64,000 nt of DNA from a candidate division FCPU426 bacterium (GCA_963796105.1 CAWCKJ010000003.1:160001-224000); one strand, 5' to 3'. Positions 31,782 through 37,778 are shown, counted from the stretch's first letter. Notes: generated by a model not told the origin, from the letters alone. Program-made: numbers and translations.

Positions 31782-31834
31782 TCAACCCCTCCTATATCAA
31801 ATATAATCTTTTTAAAATTGTTGGAGCATAAGTC

Positions 31835-32374
31835 GTGAGGTTTAAGAATTTAAGCCGTAAAAATATTCCTAAAGAGCTTTGGTATTCATTGGCAGCCGGT
31901 ATGAATTTGAATTCTGTTCTTCCTGGATCTATAAACGATAGTTATATGTATGGGCCTTACAATAAGTTGAGTGTTCGAATAAATCCCGAGCGAAACAAAC
32001 CTCAAGGCGAGATAGTCGAATGTGGGGCTTACACTTATGGAAAAATATATTTATACCCGTGTTGTAATTGTACGATTAGATTTTTAACACAAGTTTTCTT
32101 GCACGAACTTCATCACGCTTGGGTTCATCAATATCATCCAGACATTCACTCCAAAGAAAAAGATAGTAAACAAGCTGAATTTTTTGCTGATGCTGGATTT
32201 AAAGTATTGGGTGGAAAAATTCGGCCAAAAAATGTTTGCGGAAGTTATGAATTAAACATCCAAGATGCATTAAAGCGTATCGACAAATTCTTGGAGTTTT
32301 CAAAATCTCTTACTAGGCGGAATAGTAAAGACGTTTTAAAATGGAGCCATAGGAATAAGTCGGCTTTTGCTTGA
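31835..32374 (+). CDS. Hypothetical HExxH metallopeptidase-like protein
   Basis: FLHELHHAW with a downstream acidic helix (EKDSKQAEFFA); visibly AT-rich; GGAG RBS. Confidence 0.6.
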   Translation: MRFKNLSRKNIPKELWYSLAAGMNLNSVLPGSINDSYMYGPYNKLSVRINPERNKPQGEIVECGAYTYGKIYLYPCCNCTIRFLTQVFLHELHHAWVHQYHPDIHSKEKDSKQAEFFADAGFKVLGGKIRPKNVCGSYELNIQDALKRIDKFLEFSKSLTRRNSKDVLKWSHRNKSAFA

Positions 32375-32734
32375 GAACTCTATTTATTGTTCAGTTTAGG
32401 CTATTGACGGGACTTAAAATAGAACCTTGAAAGTTCACCTTTTAATCAGTGTGGGCCGCCTTTCTTGTGTTTTTAACGATTAATTTTTCCTGCGAAGCAT
32501 CAACCTCTTACTGAAAATCCTGATTATTTTCGAAAATTTACAATTTAAAACTTAAAATTACATTGTTATCGGTCTCTCCTGCCCATATATCCAGGAACCT
32601 TAACCCAGGGGGTGCACACCAACCCAATATTGGGATCTCTCAACCCAGTTTCAGAGGGATAAACCGCCCACATTTTCGTCGTCCAGGGTAGGTTTCCGTC
32701 GTACGTTGAAGTGGTTTCTATTGGGCGTTAGGGA

Positions 32735-32820
32735 GTAAGTCGGGCAGTAAGCCAGTAAGTCGGGTGGTAAGCCGGTAAGTCGGGCGGTAAGCTGGTAAGT
32801 CGGCCGGTAAGCCGGTAAGT
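32735..32820 (+). repeat. Tandem array A: 20-bp unit, about 4.3 copies
   Basis: Consensus GTAAGTCGGGCGGTAAGCCG. Confidence 0.95.
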
Positions 32821-32846
32821 CTCAGGAACTCTGGAATCAGGGGCAT

Positions 32847-33130
32847 CAACCCAGTTCCAAAGCCGGGAACCAGTTCTGCAGAGGCCCACAACCCAGTTCC
32901 AAAGCCGGGAAACAGTTCTACGGAGGCCTGTAACCTAGTTCCAAAGCCGGGAAGCAGTTCTACGGAGGTCCGCAACCCAGTTCCAAAGCCGGGAACTAGT
33001 TCCACGGAGGCCCCCAACCCAGTTCCAGAGCCGGGAACCAGTTCCGCGGAGGTCCGCAACCCAGTTCCAAAGCAGGGTACCAGATCCCCGGAGACCCACA
33101 ACCCAGTTCCAAAGCCAGGAACCAGTTCCA
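32847..33130 (+). repeat. Tandem array B: 42-bp unit, about 6.7 copies
   Basis: Approximate consensus CAACCCAGTTCCAAAGCCGGGAACCAGTTCYRCGGAGGYCCR; units start at 32847, 32889, 32931, 32973, 33015, 33057, 33099. Confidence 0.95.
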
Positions 33131-33173
33131 GAGTTCCGGGGTTTTCGGATTCTCGAGTTCCCATGCTTCCGGG

Positions 33174-33293
33174 CTAGTTCTCGGGTTCTCGGATAGTTCT
33201 TGGGTTCCCGGTTAGTTCTCGGGTTCTCGGCTAGTTCTCGGGTTCTCGGCTAGTTCTCGGGTTCTCGGCTAGTTCTCGGGTTCTCGGCTAGTT
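33174..33293 (+). repeat. Tandem array C: 19-bp unit, about 6.3 copies
   Basis: CTAGTTCTCGGGTTCTCGG; the last three full copies are identical. Confidence 0.95.
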
Positions 33294-33543
33294 GGAGGCT
33301 CAACCCAGTACAACCCAGTATGGGTGGGCTCTACCCAGTATGGGAGGCGGCAACCCAGTACAACCTAGTATGGGGTGGTTCAACCCAGTATTGGAGGCTA
33401 GCAACCCAGTACAACCCAGTATGAGAGGGCTCAACCCAGTATTGGAGGCTGGCAACCCAGTACAACCCAGTATTTGGAAAACCCTCAACCCAGTATTGGA
33501 GGCCCCAACCCAGTACAACCCAGTATGAGAGGGCTCAAACCAG
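33292..33543 (+). repeat. Tandem array D: 50-53-bp unit, about 4.8 copies, built from 14 CAACCCAGTA-type cores
   Basis: Units start at 33301, 33351, 33402, 33453, 33506, each beginning with a doubled CAACCCAGTA. Confidence 0.95.
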
Positions 33544-33575
33544 AGAGAAACAGGGGTCAGGCCATCATTCATCAC

Positions 33576-33603
33576 TTTACAAATAGTGTGAGTTGTTTAC
33601 AAT
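33576..33603 (+). promoter_or_regulatory. Putative promoter overlapping the left TIR, probably leaderless transcript
   Basis: TTTACA-16 bp-TACAAT ending 6 nt before the ATG; no Shine-Dalgarno. Confidence 0.55.
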
Positions 33604-33609
33604 GCCCTA

Positions 33610-34548
33610 ATGCCAAGGCCTAAACGGATCCATTATGAAGGGGCGGTTTACCATGTAACCTCGCGCGGTAATGAACGGCGAAAGATTGTTATGAATGACG
33701 CCGACCGCTGGATGTTTATTCGGTTATTGGGGGAAATGGTTGAAGAGAATGGTGTGTTATGTCACGCTTGGGTATTGATGGATAATCATTACCATTTGAT
33801 GCTGGAAACCCCAAGCGCGAATTTATCAACAGCCATGAAACATTTAAACGCCCAATACACACAAAAATTCAATAAAAAGCATTATCGGAATGGGCATTTG
33901 TTCCAGGGGCGGTATAAGGCCATTATTGTGGAGAAGGACAGTTATTTAAAGGAATTAAGCCGGTATGTGGTATTGAATCCGGTAAGGGCCCGGATGGTAA
34001 AACACCCCAAAGACTGGAAGTGGAGTAGTTACCGGGCGACAGCGGGATTTGATAGGGCGGAAAAATGGCTGGAAGTGGACTGGTTATTAGGGCAGTTTGG
34101 AAAGGAAAGAAAAAAGGCGCAAAAATCATACAGGACTTTTGTGGAAGAGGGGATGGGGAAGAAAGAAAAGCCTTGGGATGATTTGTATTCGCGTATATAC
34201 CTGGGTGGTAAGGAGTTTTTGGAAAAAGTCCACGAAGTAGGGCAACGTCACAAACATTTGGATGTACCGAAATATCAGAAACACGTGGTAAAGCAAGATC
34301 CGAAAGAAGTGCTGGAGAAAGTAGGAAGAATGTATGGTGAAAAAGCGGAGGAAATATTGAGGGCAGGCAAAAGGGAGTCGGAAGCCCGGGATATGGCGAT
34401 ATATTTATTAAAGAGAAAATCAGGAATGAGTTCCAAGGCGATAGGAATGAAGATGGGGGTGGGGGAAAGCGCGGTGGGAAACCGATTGATGAAGATCAAA
34501 AAAAAGTTGGCGGAAGACAAAAAGTTTGCGCAAAAGCTGATAAAGTGA
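33610..34548 (+). CDS. REP-associated tyrosine transposase-like protein (Y1_Tnp) with C-terminal DnaA_C-like HTH
   Basis: YHVTSRGN, HUH MDNHYHL, GHLFQGRY, RYVVLNPVRA, WKWSSY; C-terminal ARDMAIYLL..SGMSSKAIG..MG. Confidence 0.93.
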   Translation: MPRPKRIHYEGAVYHVTSRGNERRKIVMNDADRWMFIRLLGEMVEENGVLCHAWVLMDNHYHLMLETPSANLSTAMKHLNAQYTQKFNKKHYRNGHLFQGRYKAIIVEKDSYLKELSRYVVLNPVRARMVKHPKDWKWSSYRATAGFDRAEKWLEVDWLLGQFGKERKKAQKSYRTFVEEGMGKKEKPWDDLYSRIYLGGKEFLEKVHEVGQRHKHLDVPKYQKHVVKQDPKEVLEKVGRMYGEKAEEILRAGKRESEARDMAIYLLKRKSGMSSKAIGMKMGVGESAVGNRLMKIKKKLAEDKKFAQKLIK

Positions 34549-34691
34549 TGAATGATGGCCTGACCCCTATGTTTACTCATCGACCATTAAAGCTTTGCCC
34601 TTTCCCTTTACAAATCATAACTTACTTCCATTTTCTAATTTTAGAACTTCTCTAAAAACCGTGAACTGTCAAACATCTTTGGAGGATTTGA

Positions 34692-35747
34692 ATGAAAAAA
34701 GAAAAAAGTGTTCGTTTAATAATTAATTTTGCTTTGTCGGTTTTAGTTTTGATGTACTCATTTATTATTAGTCATGCCGCTTCCGACTCGATCAGCTTTA
34801 CCAAAAAAGAAATCGCGTTTTTCAAATGGGGAGATGGTGAAAAAGAAATTAAATTGAACAAAATTACACATAAAACGATCGATAGAAGCAAGGGTGTGAC
34901 CCAAACATCCGAAGATTTCTTATGGCCAAGTGCCATTGTAGTTGATGGCAACGACAGTATTTATTTAAATGGTGGTAATGGACAAATTTTTATTATTTCA
35001 TCGGATGGTAGTTCGATTAAGACGGTTAGCGCGAAAAAAACTGGCGGTTTAGTGGAAGTCGATGGAGATGGGAATATATATGGTACGTATAGCAAAAAAG
35101 GTGAACCCTTGGGATTTATCCGCACCAAGCCTGATGGGACACAAGAAGTTTATAAGAATTTTGATCTAGGATATGTGGAAAATGAGATCGCCTATCCTAT
35201 AAGCAATAAAGCGATGAGCGGAAATCAACCCATAACCTTTTCTAATATAGGCGACAAGGCGGAAAAACTTCCACCACATTTATTATCTCGCGATGGAGAA
35301 GTTGATTTAGGAAAATTAATGGACGGTAAATCTTTCGTAATTCACACAAGAAAAATTAATAAGCACTTAAAAAAAATAAATCGAAGGATCGATGCCGATA
35401 AAATCTTGATTGAAGTCGAAGAGAAAGACGGCATGCCACCCCGACCGCAATTTCTGGGGATCGACGACAATGGGAATTCTTATTTTCTTTGTGGTTATCA
35501 TGGAGGGTGGAATAGCTTAGTGCCTTGGAAAGAAACGTACATAATGGCTTATTCACAGACGGGTCAGAAACTCGCCGAAATTCCAATTGATCCCGATTAT
35601 TTTGACAAGCACGTGGGTTTGGCTGAATGCCGGATAGATATTCATGGGAATCTGTTTCAAAGTTGGGCGTCCAAGGATGGAGTACATATTTTTAAATGGA
35701 CAAAAATCAAAAATGAAGCAAATGCTTCGGAGGGATTAATCGCATGA
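34692..35747 (+). CDS. Secreted beta-propeller-like hypothetical protein, paralog 1
   Basis: Signal peptide; repeated xDxxGNxY blade-like motifs; similar to the next gene. Confidence 0.75.
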   Translation: MKKEKSVRLIINFALSVLVLMYSFIISHAASDSISFTKKEIAFFKWGDGEKEIKLNKITHKTIDRSKGVTQTSEDFLWPSAIVVDGNDSIYLNGGNGQIFIISSDGSSIKTVSAKKTGGLVEVDGDGNIYGTYSKKGEPLGFIRTKPDGTQEVYKNFDLGYVENEIAYPISNKAMSGNQPITFSNIGDKAEKLPPHLLSRDGEVDLGKLMDGKSFVIHTRKINKHLKKINRRIDADKILIEVEEKDGMPPRPQFLGIDDNGNSYFLCGYHGGWNSLVPWKETYIMAYSQTGQKLAEIPIDPDYFDKHVGLAECRIDIHGNLFQSWASKDGVHIFKWTKIKNEANASEGLIA

Positions 35748-36736
35748 GAATAAAATTTTTACAATTGAATTTGACCTTGCTGGTTGTGACTTTTGTTTTT
35801 CATTCCGTCCTCGCCCAATCGAATTCACCCATTAGTTTCACCAAAAAAGAAATTGCGTTTTTAAAATGGGGTGACGGTAGAAATGAAGTGAAGTTGAACA
35901 AAACTAAACATAAGTTGATCGATAGAAGTAAAGGCGTAACAGAAACAAAAGAATTTGTTTCTTGGACGCGGGATATAAAAATTGACGGTAATGACAACAT
36001 TTATTTCCGTGGCGGAAATGACAAGATTTTTATTGTTTCCTCAGATGGAAGTTCGATTAAAACGATCAGCGCGAAAAAGACGGGTGGATTAATGGATGTT
36101 GATGATGACGGTGATATTTTTGCCCCTTACCACAAAATAGGCGAACCAGAGGGTTTTATACGCACCAAGCCTGATGGAACGCAAGAAGATTTCAAACATT
36201 TCAGTGCAAACTATATGGAAAACGGTATTGCTTATGACATAAATAAAAATAAGGCGATAACCATAGCCGACAAAGGCGACCAGCCTGAGAAACTCCCACC
36301 GCGTTTGTTCTCTCGTGTGGGTGAAGTCGATTATGGAATAAATGCCGGGGGTGAATTGTGCACGATTTACACGAAAAAAATTAATAAACATTTGAAAAAA
36401 ATAAATCAAAAGATTGATGCGGATAAAATCCATATAAAGGTCGAAGAAAAAGACGGCATGCCACCTCGATCACAATTTCTTGGGATTGACGACAATGGCA
36501 ATTCTTATTTTTTGTGCGGTTATTATGGAGGACGGAATAGCTCAGTGCCTTGGAAAGAAACATATGTCATGGTTTATTCCCAGACTGGCCAAAAACTCAC
36601 CGAAATACCGGTTGATACCGATTATTTTGACAAACAATTGGTTTGGACTGAATTCAAGATAGATATTCACGGGATGCTGTTTCAAATGTGGACATCCGAG
36701 GATGGGATACATATTTTTAAATGGACAAAAAATTAG
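35744..36736 (+). CDS. Secreted beta-propeller-like hypothetical protein, paralog 2
   Basis: Shared identical blocks ISFTKKEIAF, GFIRTKPDGTQE, QFLGIDDNGNSYFLCGY; ATGA overlap with paralog 1. Confidence 0.75.
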   Translation: MRIKFLQLNLTLLVVTFVFHSVLAQSNSPISFTKKEIAFLKWGDGRNEVKLNKTKHKLIDRSKGVTETKEFVSWTRDIKIDGNDNIYFRGGNDKIFIVSSDGSSIKTISAKKTGGLMDVDDDGDIFAPYHKIGEPEGFIRTKPDGTQEDFKHFSANYMENGIAYDINKNKAITIADKGDQPEKLPPRLFSRVGEVDYGINAGGELCTIYTKKINKHLKKINQKIDADKIHIKVEEKDGMPPRSQFLGIDDNGNSYFLCGYYGGRNSSVPWKETYVMVYSQTGQKLTEIPVDTDYFDKQLVWTEFKIDIHGMLFQMWTSEDGIHIFKWTKN

Positions 36737-37089
36737 GTTTTTATTTAATCGCGATTTTCTTTTGGCTGAAGAGTTCGATTGCTTATCCACAATCGGGCCT
36801 GCCAACGCCTGTTGCCGCTGCTTCTGTTTACGTCACACTCAGCACCAATTTTAATGTGAGTGCTAAGACTGGTTCTGTTCCGATTATTGATTTATTAACC
36901 AATGCTTATAATGATAGCCCTAATGTAACTCTTTTGGACCCTCCCCCACCTTTTGATCTGAACGCTTATCTGAAAGCCAACCCTGGCGTCCCATCATTCC
37001 CGGTGATCGTCCAAATGCCTTTAGAAACTTATGTCAAGGGGGTAGTGTCACAGGAAATAGGAGTACCTCAAACGGGGATAATCCAGTAA
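36721..37089 (+). pseudogene. Truncated secreted SpoIID/LytB-like protein
   Basis: Signal peptide; MPLETYVKGVVSQEIG resembles the start of a SpoIID domain, then a stop 10 codons later. Confidence 0.55.
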
Positions 37090-37230
37090 CAGATGGGATA
37101 TTCCAATCACAAACTGAGATATTCCAGTCTCAAACGCCGATATGCCAGCCGGGTTACCTGCTGGCAGGCGCTGGCATCCTTGCTGGCAGAAGCTTGTACC
37201 CTTGCTGGCATAAGGCTGGGGCCCTGCCCG
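37067..37230 (+). repeat. Degenerate tandem repeats: ~21-bp unit x ~3.5, then ~22-bp unit x ~3
   Basis: GGGGATAATCCAGTAACAGA / TGGGATATTCCAATCACAAAC / TGAGATATTCCAGTCTCAAAC; then CYTGCTGGCA at 37157, 37179, 37201. Confidence 0.7.
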
Positions 37231-37364
37231 CAGGTGTTTGGGTCCTCGGTGTTTACTAAATTCCATGAATCCCCCATATTCTGCAGCCAAGTGCTATTTT
37301 AGCTAGGTGTGCTTCAAAATAAGTTTTCAGCGGTACCCTGAAGCAGGAAAAGGCAGGTGAAATC

Positions 37365-37778
37365 ATGAAATTTCTGACAGAACACCTATGGTTCAATACC
37401 AAGAAGCACCGGGAATACATCAACATCACCCCGGATGTGGAAAAGGCCGTAAGGAAAAGCGGCATAAAAGAGGGCATGGTGCTGGTATCCGCCATGCATA
37501 TTACCGCGGGGGTTTACGTGAATGACGCGGAGGACGGGCTGATCGAGGATATCGATGAGTGGCTTGAAAAGCTGGCCCCCTTCCGCCAGGATTACCGGCA
37601 CCACCGGACCGGTGAAACCAACGGGGATTCGCACTTGAAGAGCATGCTTGTCCACCACCAGGTGATCGTGCCGGTGACGGATGGAAAATTGGATTTTGGG
37701 CCCTGGCAGCAGGTTTATTACGCCGAGTTTGATGGGCAGAGGAAGAAGAGATTGATCATCAAAGTGATGGGGGAATAA
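37365..37778 (+). CDS. yjbQ: YjbQ/UPF0047 family protein
   Basis: [33 protein letters not shown]. Confidence 0.93.

Follow-up and report, generated by a model that had tools for sequence, protein, structure and literature searches.

The stretch analysed here comprises 64,000 nucleotides of a candidate division FCPU426 bacterium (GCA_963796105.1, CAWCKJ010000003.1:160001-224000), hereafter the window, in which an insertion sequence (IS)-like element with a Y1/HUH transposase gene lies directly beside a block of four stacked tandem-repeat arrays. The source genome (G000) measures 4.98 Mb in 16 contigs, written C2, C3 and so on; the window lies on C3. The element spans ~1,028 bp on the + strand (33547..34574) and consists of two 28-bp terminal inverted repeats (TIRs), an outer imperfect AAACA(W) extension and the gene; the interval that is repeated is C3:193552-194574. 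The left TIR, AGGGGTCAGGCCATCATTCATCACTTTA (33552..33579, + strand), and the right TIR (34541..34568, - strand), a plain variant without a hairpin insert, are 28 nt each and 100% complementary to one another, and the tip GGGGTCAG fits the consensus GGGGWSAS. Within the left end, 6 bp 5′ of the start codon, a consensus scan finds a promoter-like site, TTTACA-16-TACAAT (33576..33603, + strand), which agrees at 10/12 positions and is a pattern match only. The gene (33610..34548, + strand) encodes a protein of 312 aa with a Y1/HUH RAYT-like region (residues ~4-143) and a DnaA-domain-IV-like helix-turn-helix (HTH; residues ~224-310).

The four arrays, A to D, form an 809-bp block at 32735-33543 in a Tandem Repeats Finder (TRF) search of the window. 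Array A (32735..32821, + strand) has a 20-bp unit, GTAAGTCGGGCGGTAAGCCG, repeated 4.3 times (TRF score 139, 89% matches; autocorrelation 0.90 at lag 20), and array B (32847..33130, + strand) a 42-bp unit repeated 6.8 times, every unit beginning CAACCCAGTTCCA (score 400; autocorrelation 0.86 at lag 42). Array C (33172..33293, + strand) consists of 6.4 copies of the 19-bp unit GGCTAGTTCTCGGGTTCTC (score 216, 93% matches), and array D (33292..33543, + strand) of 5.0 copies of a compound 51-bp unit that holds three CAACCCAGTA words at spacings of 10, 20 and 21 bp (score 330). The head of this compound locus (32641..32690, + strand) is non-repeated and contains one CAACCCAGT and the 16-nt word GATAAACCGCCCACAT (32658-32673). 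The final unit of array D is broken mid-word, reading CAAACCAG and then AGAGAAACA-GGGG of the element side, and by TRF and an inverted-repeat search 8 bp separate the end of the array from the left TIR arm. A first-pass annotation, made from the sequence alone, had described ~810 bp of arrays with units of 20, 42, 19 and 50-53 bp just before the left TIR, in close agreement with these values. The words that it listed as common to several arrays can likewise be read in the sequence: GGAGGC-N1-3-CAACCCAGT is common to B and D and AGTTC to B and C, with early copies of CAACCCA at 32621 and of CAACCCAGT at 32641.

The word CAACCCAGT occurs 19 times in the 64-kb window, always on the + strand and within 32641-33524 (shuffle mean 0.27; 0/100 shuffles reach 19). 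This uniform orientation had been noticed in the first pass, together with the judgement that the block is not CRISPR, and we concur: the units are contiguous and without unique spacers, and the genuine CRISPR arrays of G000 lie elsewhere (C2:363775-366962 and C16). Treated as single-stranded DNA, the array flank folded no better than shuffles (z +1.54), and an Rfam search of 31800-37400 returned no credible family, its sole match having E 0.96. The possibility of an assembly artefact, on which the first reading would have foundered, was discarded. Array words recur in 15 clusters of G000; at the orthologous site of a sister species (G001), whose genome was assembled independently, the 19-bp unit again forms an array; and a short contig from a public sequencing run, which may be the source sample, matches 32608-32819 without difference.

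The gene product matches Pfam Y1_Tnp (E 2.3e-13) and, over residues 4-139, NCBIfam REP_Tyr_transpos at 86.9 bits (cut-off 80); NCBIfam transpos_IS200 scores 17.1 against a cut-off of 55. Its C-terminus resembles Bac_DnaA_C of Pfam (residues 232-289, E 8e-5; 23 bits, under the 31.5-bit cut-off), the C-terminal ends of three DnaA equivalog models of NCBIfam match residues ~224-310 (best E 3.2e-6), and Sigma70_r4_2 also matches the last 80 residues, below the Pfam threshold. The sole PDB match by sequence is E. coli TnpAREP (4ER8, E 0.0012), in whose alignment the HyH of MDNHYHLM stands opposite HmH and RYVVLNPV opposite DYIYINPV. RAYT-like genes flanked by TIRs have been named TIRYT and the units that they form TIRtrons, with the motif GGGGWSAS (Di Nocera et al. 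2013, PMC3733652). In the classification of Quentin et al. (2018, PMC6006769) TIRYTs are subclass 2.1 of the Y1 HuH proteins; the subclass is without repetitive extragenic palindromic (REP) sequences, and its C-terminal HTH, which has no assigned function, is of the Bac_DnaA_C, HTH_23 or HTH_28 type and is noted there not to fit the TIR motif.

We assign the element of the window to the TIRtrons and its gene to TIRYT subclass 2.1. Its Y1 core is of the RAYT and not the IS200 type, the gene is bracketed by TIRs with a GGGGWSAS tip, and the C-terminal HTH shows significant but sub-threshold similarity to Bac_DnaA_C and the DnaA models. Moreover, there are no REP-like palindromes round the gene of the window copy, the TIR pair being the only strong inverted repeat and the flank not folding. 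Membership of IS200/IS605 was rejected because perfect TIRs are present and the IS200 model falls far under its cut-off. The TIRYT identity, to which the first-pass annotation had already pointed, is borne out by the RAYT-like domain, the C-terminal HTH and the tip GGGGTCAG (PMC3733652, PMC6006769).

Searching G000 with the TIRYT protein gave 22 matches, namely 7 intact full-length copies (97-100% protein identity), one partial copy and diverged subfamilies (46-69%); megablast with the element likewise gave 7 full-length copies. The ends of nearly every copy, read inward, are RAACAA and then WGGGGTCAGG, so the inverted repeat really reaches ~5-6 nt further out, imperfectly, for a total of ~33 bp. 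Flanks are unrelated between copies while the ends are conserved, which has the look of independent transposition events. With 7 intact copies at 97-100% identity the element behaves as an active IS, and the window copy is an intact and recently active TIRtron.

In 4/8 near-identical copies the right TIR holds a 25-nt insert, CACTGCCACACGCTGCGGAGCGTGTGG, with a hairpin of 9-bp stem; the window copy is without it. A 22-nt perfect hairpin (9-bp stem, 4-nt loop), confined to TIRs, lies between the GGGGTCAGG tip and the inner ATCATTCATCAC at ~12 sites in G000. Right TIRs bear it at C3:664976, C4:1409137, C11:133326 and C12:332367, and left TIRs at C4:1266492, C4:1325150 and C6:194888. At C12:185167 it is flanked by both tips only and forms a minimal REP-like palindrome. 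It could supply the 'subterminal hairpin' that has been missing in this HUH family.

TIRtron ends are also duplicated in tandem. TRF units containing GGGGWSA lie at element ends in 21/90 TIRYT loci of other genomes, from several phyla, ~18-19 of which were judged genuine (L024, L026, L029, L051, L056, L065, L075, L086, L088, L091, L098, L104, L110, L112, L113 and others). These duplications amount to 2-9 copies of 8-46 bp, the unit being the tip GGGGTCA with a few flank bases (for example, 15-16 nt x3.9 or 11 nt x9). G000 has end duplications at C6:194853-194885 (16 bp x2.1), as tandem solo TIRs at C3:535033 and C3:535077, and as a right-end 120 bp x2 at C4:1338687-1338925. Nicking or re-synthesis near TIRtron ends may therefore occur, with products that carry the TIR tip, unlike arrays A-D. 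Six pairs of Y1 elements or fragments of different subfamilies lie within 3.6 kb of one another among the 22 matches (C4:1337329/1337841, C6:194914/195689, C12:329379/332367, C7:96228/99799, C11:133326/134327 and C4:1409137/1412181), which suggests insertion beside one another's ends. Compared with GC skew, the orientation of 16 Y1 elements was concordant in 12, discordant in 3 and ambiguous in 1, local skew being noisy.

The array words are spread over the whole genome. The genome-wide count of CAACCCAGT that the first pass had proposed as a check gave 240 occurrences in G000 against 37 for the reversed control, in 15 clusters. A TRF run over G000 returned 568 merged repeat loci; once loci in long open reading frames (ORFs), CRISPRs and IS-internal repeats had been removed, 92 non-coding array loci were left (34,141 bp, or 0.69% of G000 and ~5% of its intergenic DNA), which were grouped into 75 compound loci. 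Periods of 42-44 bp are found in 25/92 and of 50-53 bp in 15/92, and the length-weighted autocorrelation of the arrays peaks at lags 21-22, 43, 52, 86 and 104, which are multiples of ~10.5-10.75 bp; lags of ~21, 43 and 52 bp equal 2, 4 and 5 helical turns. In the window, B (42) and D (51 = 10+20+21) fit this spacing, and A (20) and C (19) are slightly short. Building words include CAACCCAGTA, GGTAAGYCGG, GTTCTCGG, GGAACYC and GATAAMCCGCCCACAT. Copies of GATAAMCCGCCCACAT are typically 42-43 bp apart.

Parts of the window locus recur elsewhere: a 46-bp head stretch (within 32639-32684) at C11:130157-130113 (93%) and C4:1266385-1266429 (91%), and the 54-nt junction into array B (within 32806-32859) at C11:130082-130029 (91% identity). 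D-type arrays are found at C3:495332-496051, 594576-594913 and 597531-597815, at C4:378979-379455, C6:193931-194660, C11:130147-130372 and C11:132905-133269, and at C12:172993-173441 and C12:175977-176464. The 75 array loci show no gene-gap bias, with 16 convergent, 15 divergent and 44 tandem gaps against 408, 475 and 1,610 for all gaps. Arrays A-D can be regarded as a single member of a family of ~75 mosaic array loci that are non-coding, helically phased and restricted to one genus; judged from the literature on TIRYT and on REP/IS targeting, this family is apparently undescribed.

The distribution of words and genes among relatives differs. With one mismatch allowed, the 16-nt word GATAAMCCGCCCACAT has 73 copies in G000 and 111 in G001, and no more than one in any of 39 other relatives (reversed control 0), and the expansion of CAACCCAGT is essentially limited to G000 among the genomes compared; most of the relatives' assemblies are fragmented and repeats collapse in them, so the absence of arrays there is weak evidence. 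The word GATAAMCCGCCCACAT looks like a conserved candidate protein-binding site. The Y1 gene family is present in 28/41 genomes searched, G000 included, and in 26/39 relatives beyond G000 and G001. G000 has the most Y1 matches (22) of the 41 genomes and G001 only 4, and in another relative, G006, 14 Y1 matches go with zero copies of the 16-mer and with 17 of CAACCCAGT against 25 for the reversed control.

At the orthologous site of G001 a compound array stands directly 5′ of the UPF0047 gene, without a TIRtron. It holds the 19-bp GTTCTCGG unit, G001 locus L042 4307-4498 aligning to window 33122-33293 at 75-85%, and the array A word in opposite orientation, as CTTACCG units. In the window, a small array with 21- and 22-bp units (37069..37219, + strand; TRF, C3:197069-197219) lies ~2.5 kb downstream of the TIRtron and directly 5′ of a junction at 37223-37273, beyond which is the UPF0047 gene (37365-37778; Pfam UPF0047 E 5e-40). 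The G001 compound array abuts the same junction and gene, L042 4535-4585 and 4683-5165 aligning at 88-90%. The TIRtron and three ORFs (34692-37089) separate the main arrays from the remnant at 37069-37219. We found no second distant TIR in the window that would make 33547-37068 one composite unit. Synteny with G001 is kept up to window position 31800 and resumes at 37223, and both an ORF at 31835-32374 and the segment 34575-37068 are absent from G001, so that a simple comparison of filled and empty site is not possible. The closest G001 copy of the TIRtron (88% identity) lies in a stretch of 16 kb that is free of arrays.

Arrays and TIRtrons are for the most part found apart. Only 7/75 array loci have one of the 22 Y1 matches within 300 bp, the other 68 being farther away, and 4/7 full-length TIRtron copies of G000 are without an array within 500 bp. 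The main family adjoins arrays within ~300 bp at C3:193610, C3:664976 and C11:133326, and paralogs do so at C7:99799, C4:1266512, C6:194914 and C2:159145. The three near-identical copies touch different arrays, and not by the same end: the window copy does so with its left end, the copies at C3:664976 (GGAAC-type) and C11:133326 (D-type) with their right ends. Each has an array on one side only (n = 3, not statistically telling). Flanks of homologous TIR-bounded Y1 genes were surveyed, a check that the first-pass annotation had proposed. None of the 11 TIRtron loci of relatives had an array of this kind within 1.5 kb. Of 79 distant TIRYT loci from other phyla, just one, L128 (a Ca. Uabimicrobium record), has short-period arrays stacked next to its gene, and the other repeats near these genes either duplicate the end of the element itself or have long periods. 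Sharing of 7- to 10-mers between element and arrays was not above shuffled controls, the two terminal 80-bp stretches of the element sharing one 7-mer and none.

Certain IS families, by comparison, are over-represented at the arrays. IS identities were taken from Pfam, proximity was set at 30 bp for TIRtron ends and at 100 bp for the two IS21-type families and the IS3-type family, and besides a whole-genome null we used a conservative null that allows insertion nowhere but in the intergenic 14.4% of the genome. TIRtron copies adjoin arrays in 3/7 cases (whole-genome null P 1e-4; conservative null P 0.004), IS21-type a in 7/12 (P 6e-10; P 1.5e-6), IS21-type b in 4/5 (P 6e-7; P 5.6e-5) and the IS3-type family in 4/10 (P 2e-5; P 0.002). 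The control families IS1595-a (2/30), IS1595-b (0/24), IS1380-like (0/20) and IS4/5-type (0/9) give a pooled 2/83 (conservative null P 0.96). Moreover, a repeat of 700 bp or more adjoins 28/75 array loci, compared with 8.3 +/- 2.5 when placement is random (highest value in 300 trials, 18). The adjacency of TIRtron and arrays (3/7, P 0.004) is therefore not pure chance.

Of the IS21-b copies, 4/5 lie inside array units with target duplications of 5-7 bp (TTGTAC, ACAAC, GTTGC and CTCTGGA). Target duplications within array units mean that the arrays pre-exist and are hit by transposons. The arrays hit by IS21-b belong to three word families, and two of the insertions split D-type arrays like that of the window; this suggests that recognition is not of one shared sequence. 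A family-specific excess and insertion into existing repeats, the two marks of an IS hot spot, are both seen here, the TIRtron itself showing the excess (3/7) alone.

Taken together, these data make it probable that the window contains two independent things side by side, an active TIRtron and a pre-existing array of an IS-landing-site family at which it inserted. The data show that the arrays predate the element and do not depend on it, and that enrichment is confined to certain IS families. The window copy would have landed by transposition where array D meets the region upstream of the ORF at 34692. Arrays would be preferred, or preferentially retained, insertion sites for the TIRtron, the two IS21-type families and the IS3-type family, and what attracts them may be a physical condition that the arrays have in common and that target-selecting proteins recognise, for instance phased binding of protein, a bend in the DNA, or single strands exposed where replication forks pause. 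Insertions within an array would be flanked by direct repeats and easily lost, such that insertions at the edge persist. Our best guess is that the arrays are putative phased binding sites for one or more sequence-specific DNA-binding proteins other than TIRYT.

Several points weigh against this reading. Y1 elements as a whole are enriched near arrays, so that protein family and arrays may yet be functionally linked. No empty-site allele was found for any TIRtron copy: G001 flank searches gave only paralogous or weak matches, as did searches for the empty sites of the C3:664976 and C11 copies in G001, G002 and G006. Public runs listed with the sequence are five DNA runs from 2 studies, all stored as short contigs, and no RNA run. 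No contig of the four DNA runs that were compared bridges an array-element junction and no joints were seen, loose ends being other genomic copies of the element. Consequently, the order of events at the window junction is one that we infer. One-sided arrays and the mid-word cut call for an extra assumption, edge retention or later rearrangement, given that simple insertion does not predict them; the mid-word cut fits insertion into a D unit whose other side would later have been lost or rearranged. The sample is small, with only 3 TIRtron copies adjoining arrays, and IS copies are perhaps not all independent, as an array duplicated together with its IS would inflate the counts (independence was checked by flank inspection). 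Finally, the array catalogue depends on TRF thresholds and the intergenic map on a crude longest-ORF heuristic. As a separate observation, the left flank of the window copy (CAAACCAG) joined to the right flank of the C11 copy (CGTGGGGGCT) gives a D-type unit of canonical length with three differences (33520-33551; C11:133260-133296), both copies being collinear with the array. Insertion at one and the same position of the unit could account for this, as could an exchange that involved two copies.

That there is no targeting at all, the arrays being neutral, dispensable DNA which tolerates insertions so that adjacency arises by survivorship or chance, seems unlikely to us. It would suit the non-coding nature of the arrays, the lack of a promoter-side or terminator-side bias in the gaps that they occupy and the involvement of only 3 TIRtron copies. 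However, the four other IS families, with 83 full-length copies and 2 ends near arrays, match the intergenic null that the TIRtron, IS21-a, IS21-b and IS3 families exceed, and arrays that make up ~5% of intergenic DNA hold 3/7, 7/12, 4/5 and 4/10 of the copies of these families.

A relationship like that of REP and RAYT, in which the arrays would be the cognate substrate of the TIRYT family (for example, iterons) and be bound, maintained or spread in trans, is in our view quite improbable. Its appeal lies in the Y1 elements of several subfamilies within ~300 bp of arrays at 7 loci, in the coincidence in G000 of the most Y1 matches (22, of the counts for 41 genomes) with a large CAACCCAGT expansion, and in a C-terminal HTH that, in the published description, has no assigned function and does not fit the TIR motif (PMC6006769). 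Yet arrays of at least 5 unrelated word families are hard to square with one sequence-specific protein, and G001 has 111 copies of the 16-mer with 4 Y1 matches, against G006 with 14 Y1 matches, no 16-mer and background CAACCCAGT. The DDE-type IS21 and IS3 families associate with the arrays equally or more strongly. Nor can the arrays be taken as a REP equivalent, a possibility that we rejected: CAACCCAGT words all run in one direction on one strand, there are no hairpins (fold z +1.54), the arrays stand on one side of the gene and not both, and they share nothing with the TIRs or the rest of the element ends. The suggestion of the first pass that the arrays are iterons for the element's own HTH is not supported, in that 4/7 copies in G000 and 11/11 copies of relatives are without an array, 1/79 distant loci has one, and the words are genus-restricted and the gene widespread.

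That the element itself laid down the arrays by repeated HUH nicking and re-synthesis at its left end, as the first-pass annotation had also proposed, is very improbable: TIRtron ends do yield short tandem duplications (21/90 loci flagged, ~18-19 genuine, with examples in G000) and the array stops 8 bp from the TIR, but these duplications consist of TIR tip and flank and arrays A-D are without TIR sequence or any k-mer excess, identical array types occur at many loci without the element, the orthologous G001 array has no TIRtron, 4/7 copies here and 11/11 in relatives lack such an array, near-identical copies adjoin different arrays by different ends, and the IS21-b target duplications prove that arrays precede insertions.

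Compared with described systems, the element is a further TIRtron/TIRYT of the known kind. It has the RAYT-like HUH and Tyr domain, the Bac_DnaA_C-like HTH, a gene ~30-60 bp inside its TIRs and the GGGGWSAS tip (PMC3733652, PMC6006769), and solo, dimeric and grouped TIR copies are present elsewhere in G000 too, dimeric and grouped TIRs having already been mentioned by Di Nocera et al. (PMC3733652). Set beside the published text only, G000 differs in having 7 intact copies at 97-100% identity together with diverged subfamilies, multiplying as an IS, and in that half of the copies carry a perfect 9-bp-stem hairpin in one TIR. With REP-RAYT and REPIN-RAYT systems the element has in common the RAYT-type catalytic domain (REP_Tyr_transpos above cut-off; nearest structure TnpAREP 4ER8). 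Unlike a RAYT gene, which is single-copy, domesticated and REP-flanked, the gene here is multi-copy, mobile and TIR-flanked, and the arrays beside it have no hairpins, are one-sided and are unrelated to the element ends.

For the arrays the nearest parallels are of two kinds. Certain IS elements have been found to use REP sequences as insertion hot spots (Tobes & Pareja 2006, PMC1525189), and REPs and bacterial interspersed mosaic elements (BIMEs) resemble the arrays as dispersed non-coding intergenic repeats that capture some IS families and not others (PMC1525189). The arrays are, in contrast, head-to-tail direct repeats of 100-1,400 bp with helical-turn spacing, where REPs are palindromic hairpins of 20-40 bp. 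The IS caught here are IS21-type, IS3-type and the Y1 TIRtron, and the arrays differ in sequence, so any recognition would not be of one motif.

Among plasmid arrays, sopC of F has twelve 43-bp repeats and the iterons of R6K are 22 bp. The arrays of G000 share with such iteron or centromere-like arrays their strictly phased direct repeats of ~20-43 bp, a layout that serial protein-binding sites would be expected to show. They differ in occupying ~75 chromosomal loci with several word families stacked per locus, and no rep or par gene was seen beside the window arrays. The present analysis contributes the genome-wide array catalogue, the IS-family-specific enrichment, the orthologous array of the sister species and the relation to the TIRtron.

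In the published text on TIRYT the activity of these elements is left unknown (PMC3733652, PMC6006769). Seven near-identical intact copies with clear ends, a hairpin TIR variant and frequent tip duplications make G000 a good natural system for TIR-bounded HUH mobility. Moreover, three unrelated transposition chemistries converge on these arrays and four other IS families ignore them. Targeting by DNA state and not by sequence, if it occurs, would matter for understanding how bacteria limit the harm that IS elements do and how proteins that select targets pick their sites. Going further, we tentatively raise the possibility, and hold it as no better than speculative, that the arrays are a genus-specific nucleoprotein or DNA-structure feature, perhaps covered in phase by a sequence-specific protein and thereby bent or apt to pause forks, acting as chromosomal 'landing pads', which would draw unrelated transposons (IstB-assisted IS21, IS3 and the single-strand-dependent Y1 TIRtron) away from genes. 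If true, such landing pads would be the tandem-array counterpart of REP hot spots, recognised by state and not by sequence. The locus also carries a caution, as a striking juxtaposition of transposase and repeats in one window can be two independent genome-wide families meeting, and not cause and effect.

Downstream of the TIRtron, the ORFs 34692-35747 (351 aa) and 35744-36736 (330 aa) are tandem paralogs, ~65% identical, with hydrophobic N-termini and no Pfam match. Their only other paralog in G000 is C6:80251-81216 (29% identity), 2.4 kb downstream of another TIRtron copy. Upstream of the arrays, the ORF 31835-32374 (179 aa), which is absent at the syntenic place in G001, has no Pfam match and contains an HELHH stretch, a possible HExxH metalloprotease motif.

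G000 as a whole is highly repetitive; repeats that reach 500 bp and >=90% identity occupy ~416 kb (8%), and among them are two IS1595-type families, with 30 and 24 copies, and the IS1380-like family (20). Another repeat family, of 75-76 bp with internal dyad symmetry, forms arrays at C2:112809, C2:120340-121189, C2:158387 and C3:732524; its array at C2:158387-158993 lies 152 bp upstream of the Y1 paralog C2:159145 (69% identity). Long ORFs of G000 contain another 233 tandem-repeat loci (117 kb), many with units rich in ACC/CCC/ACA-type codons on one strand.

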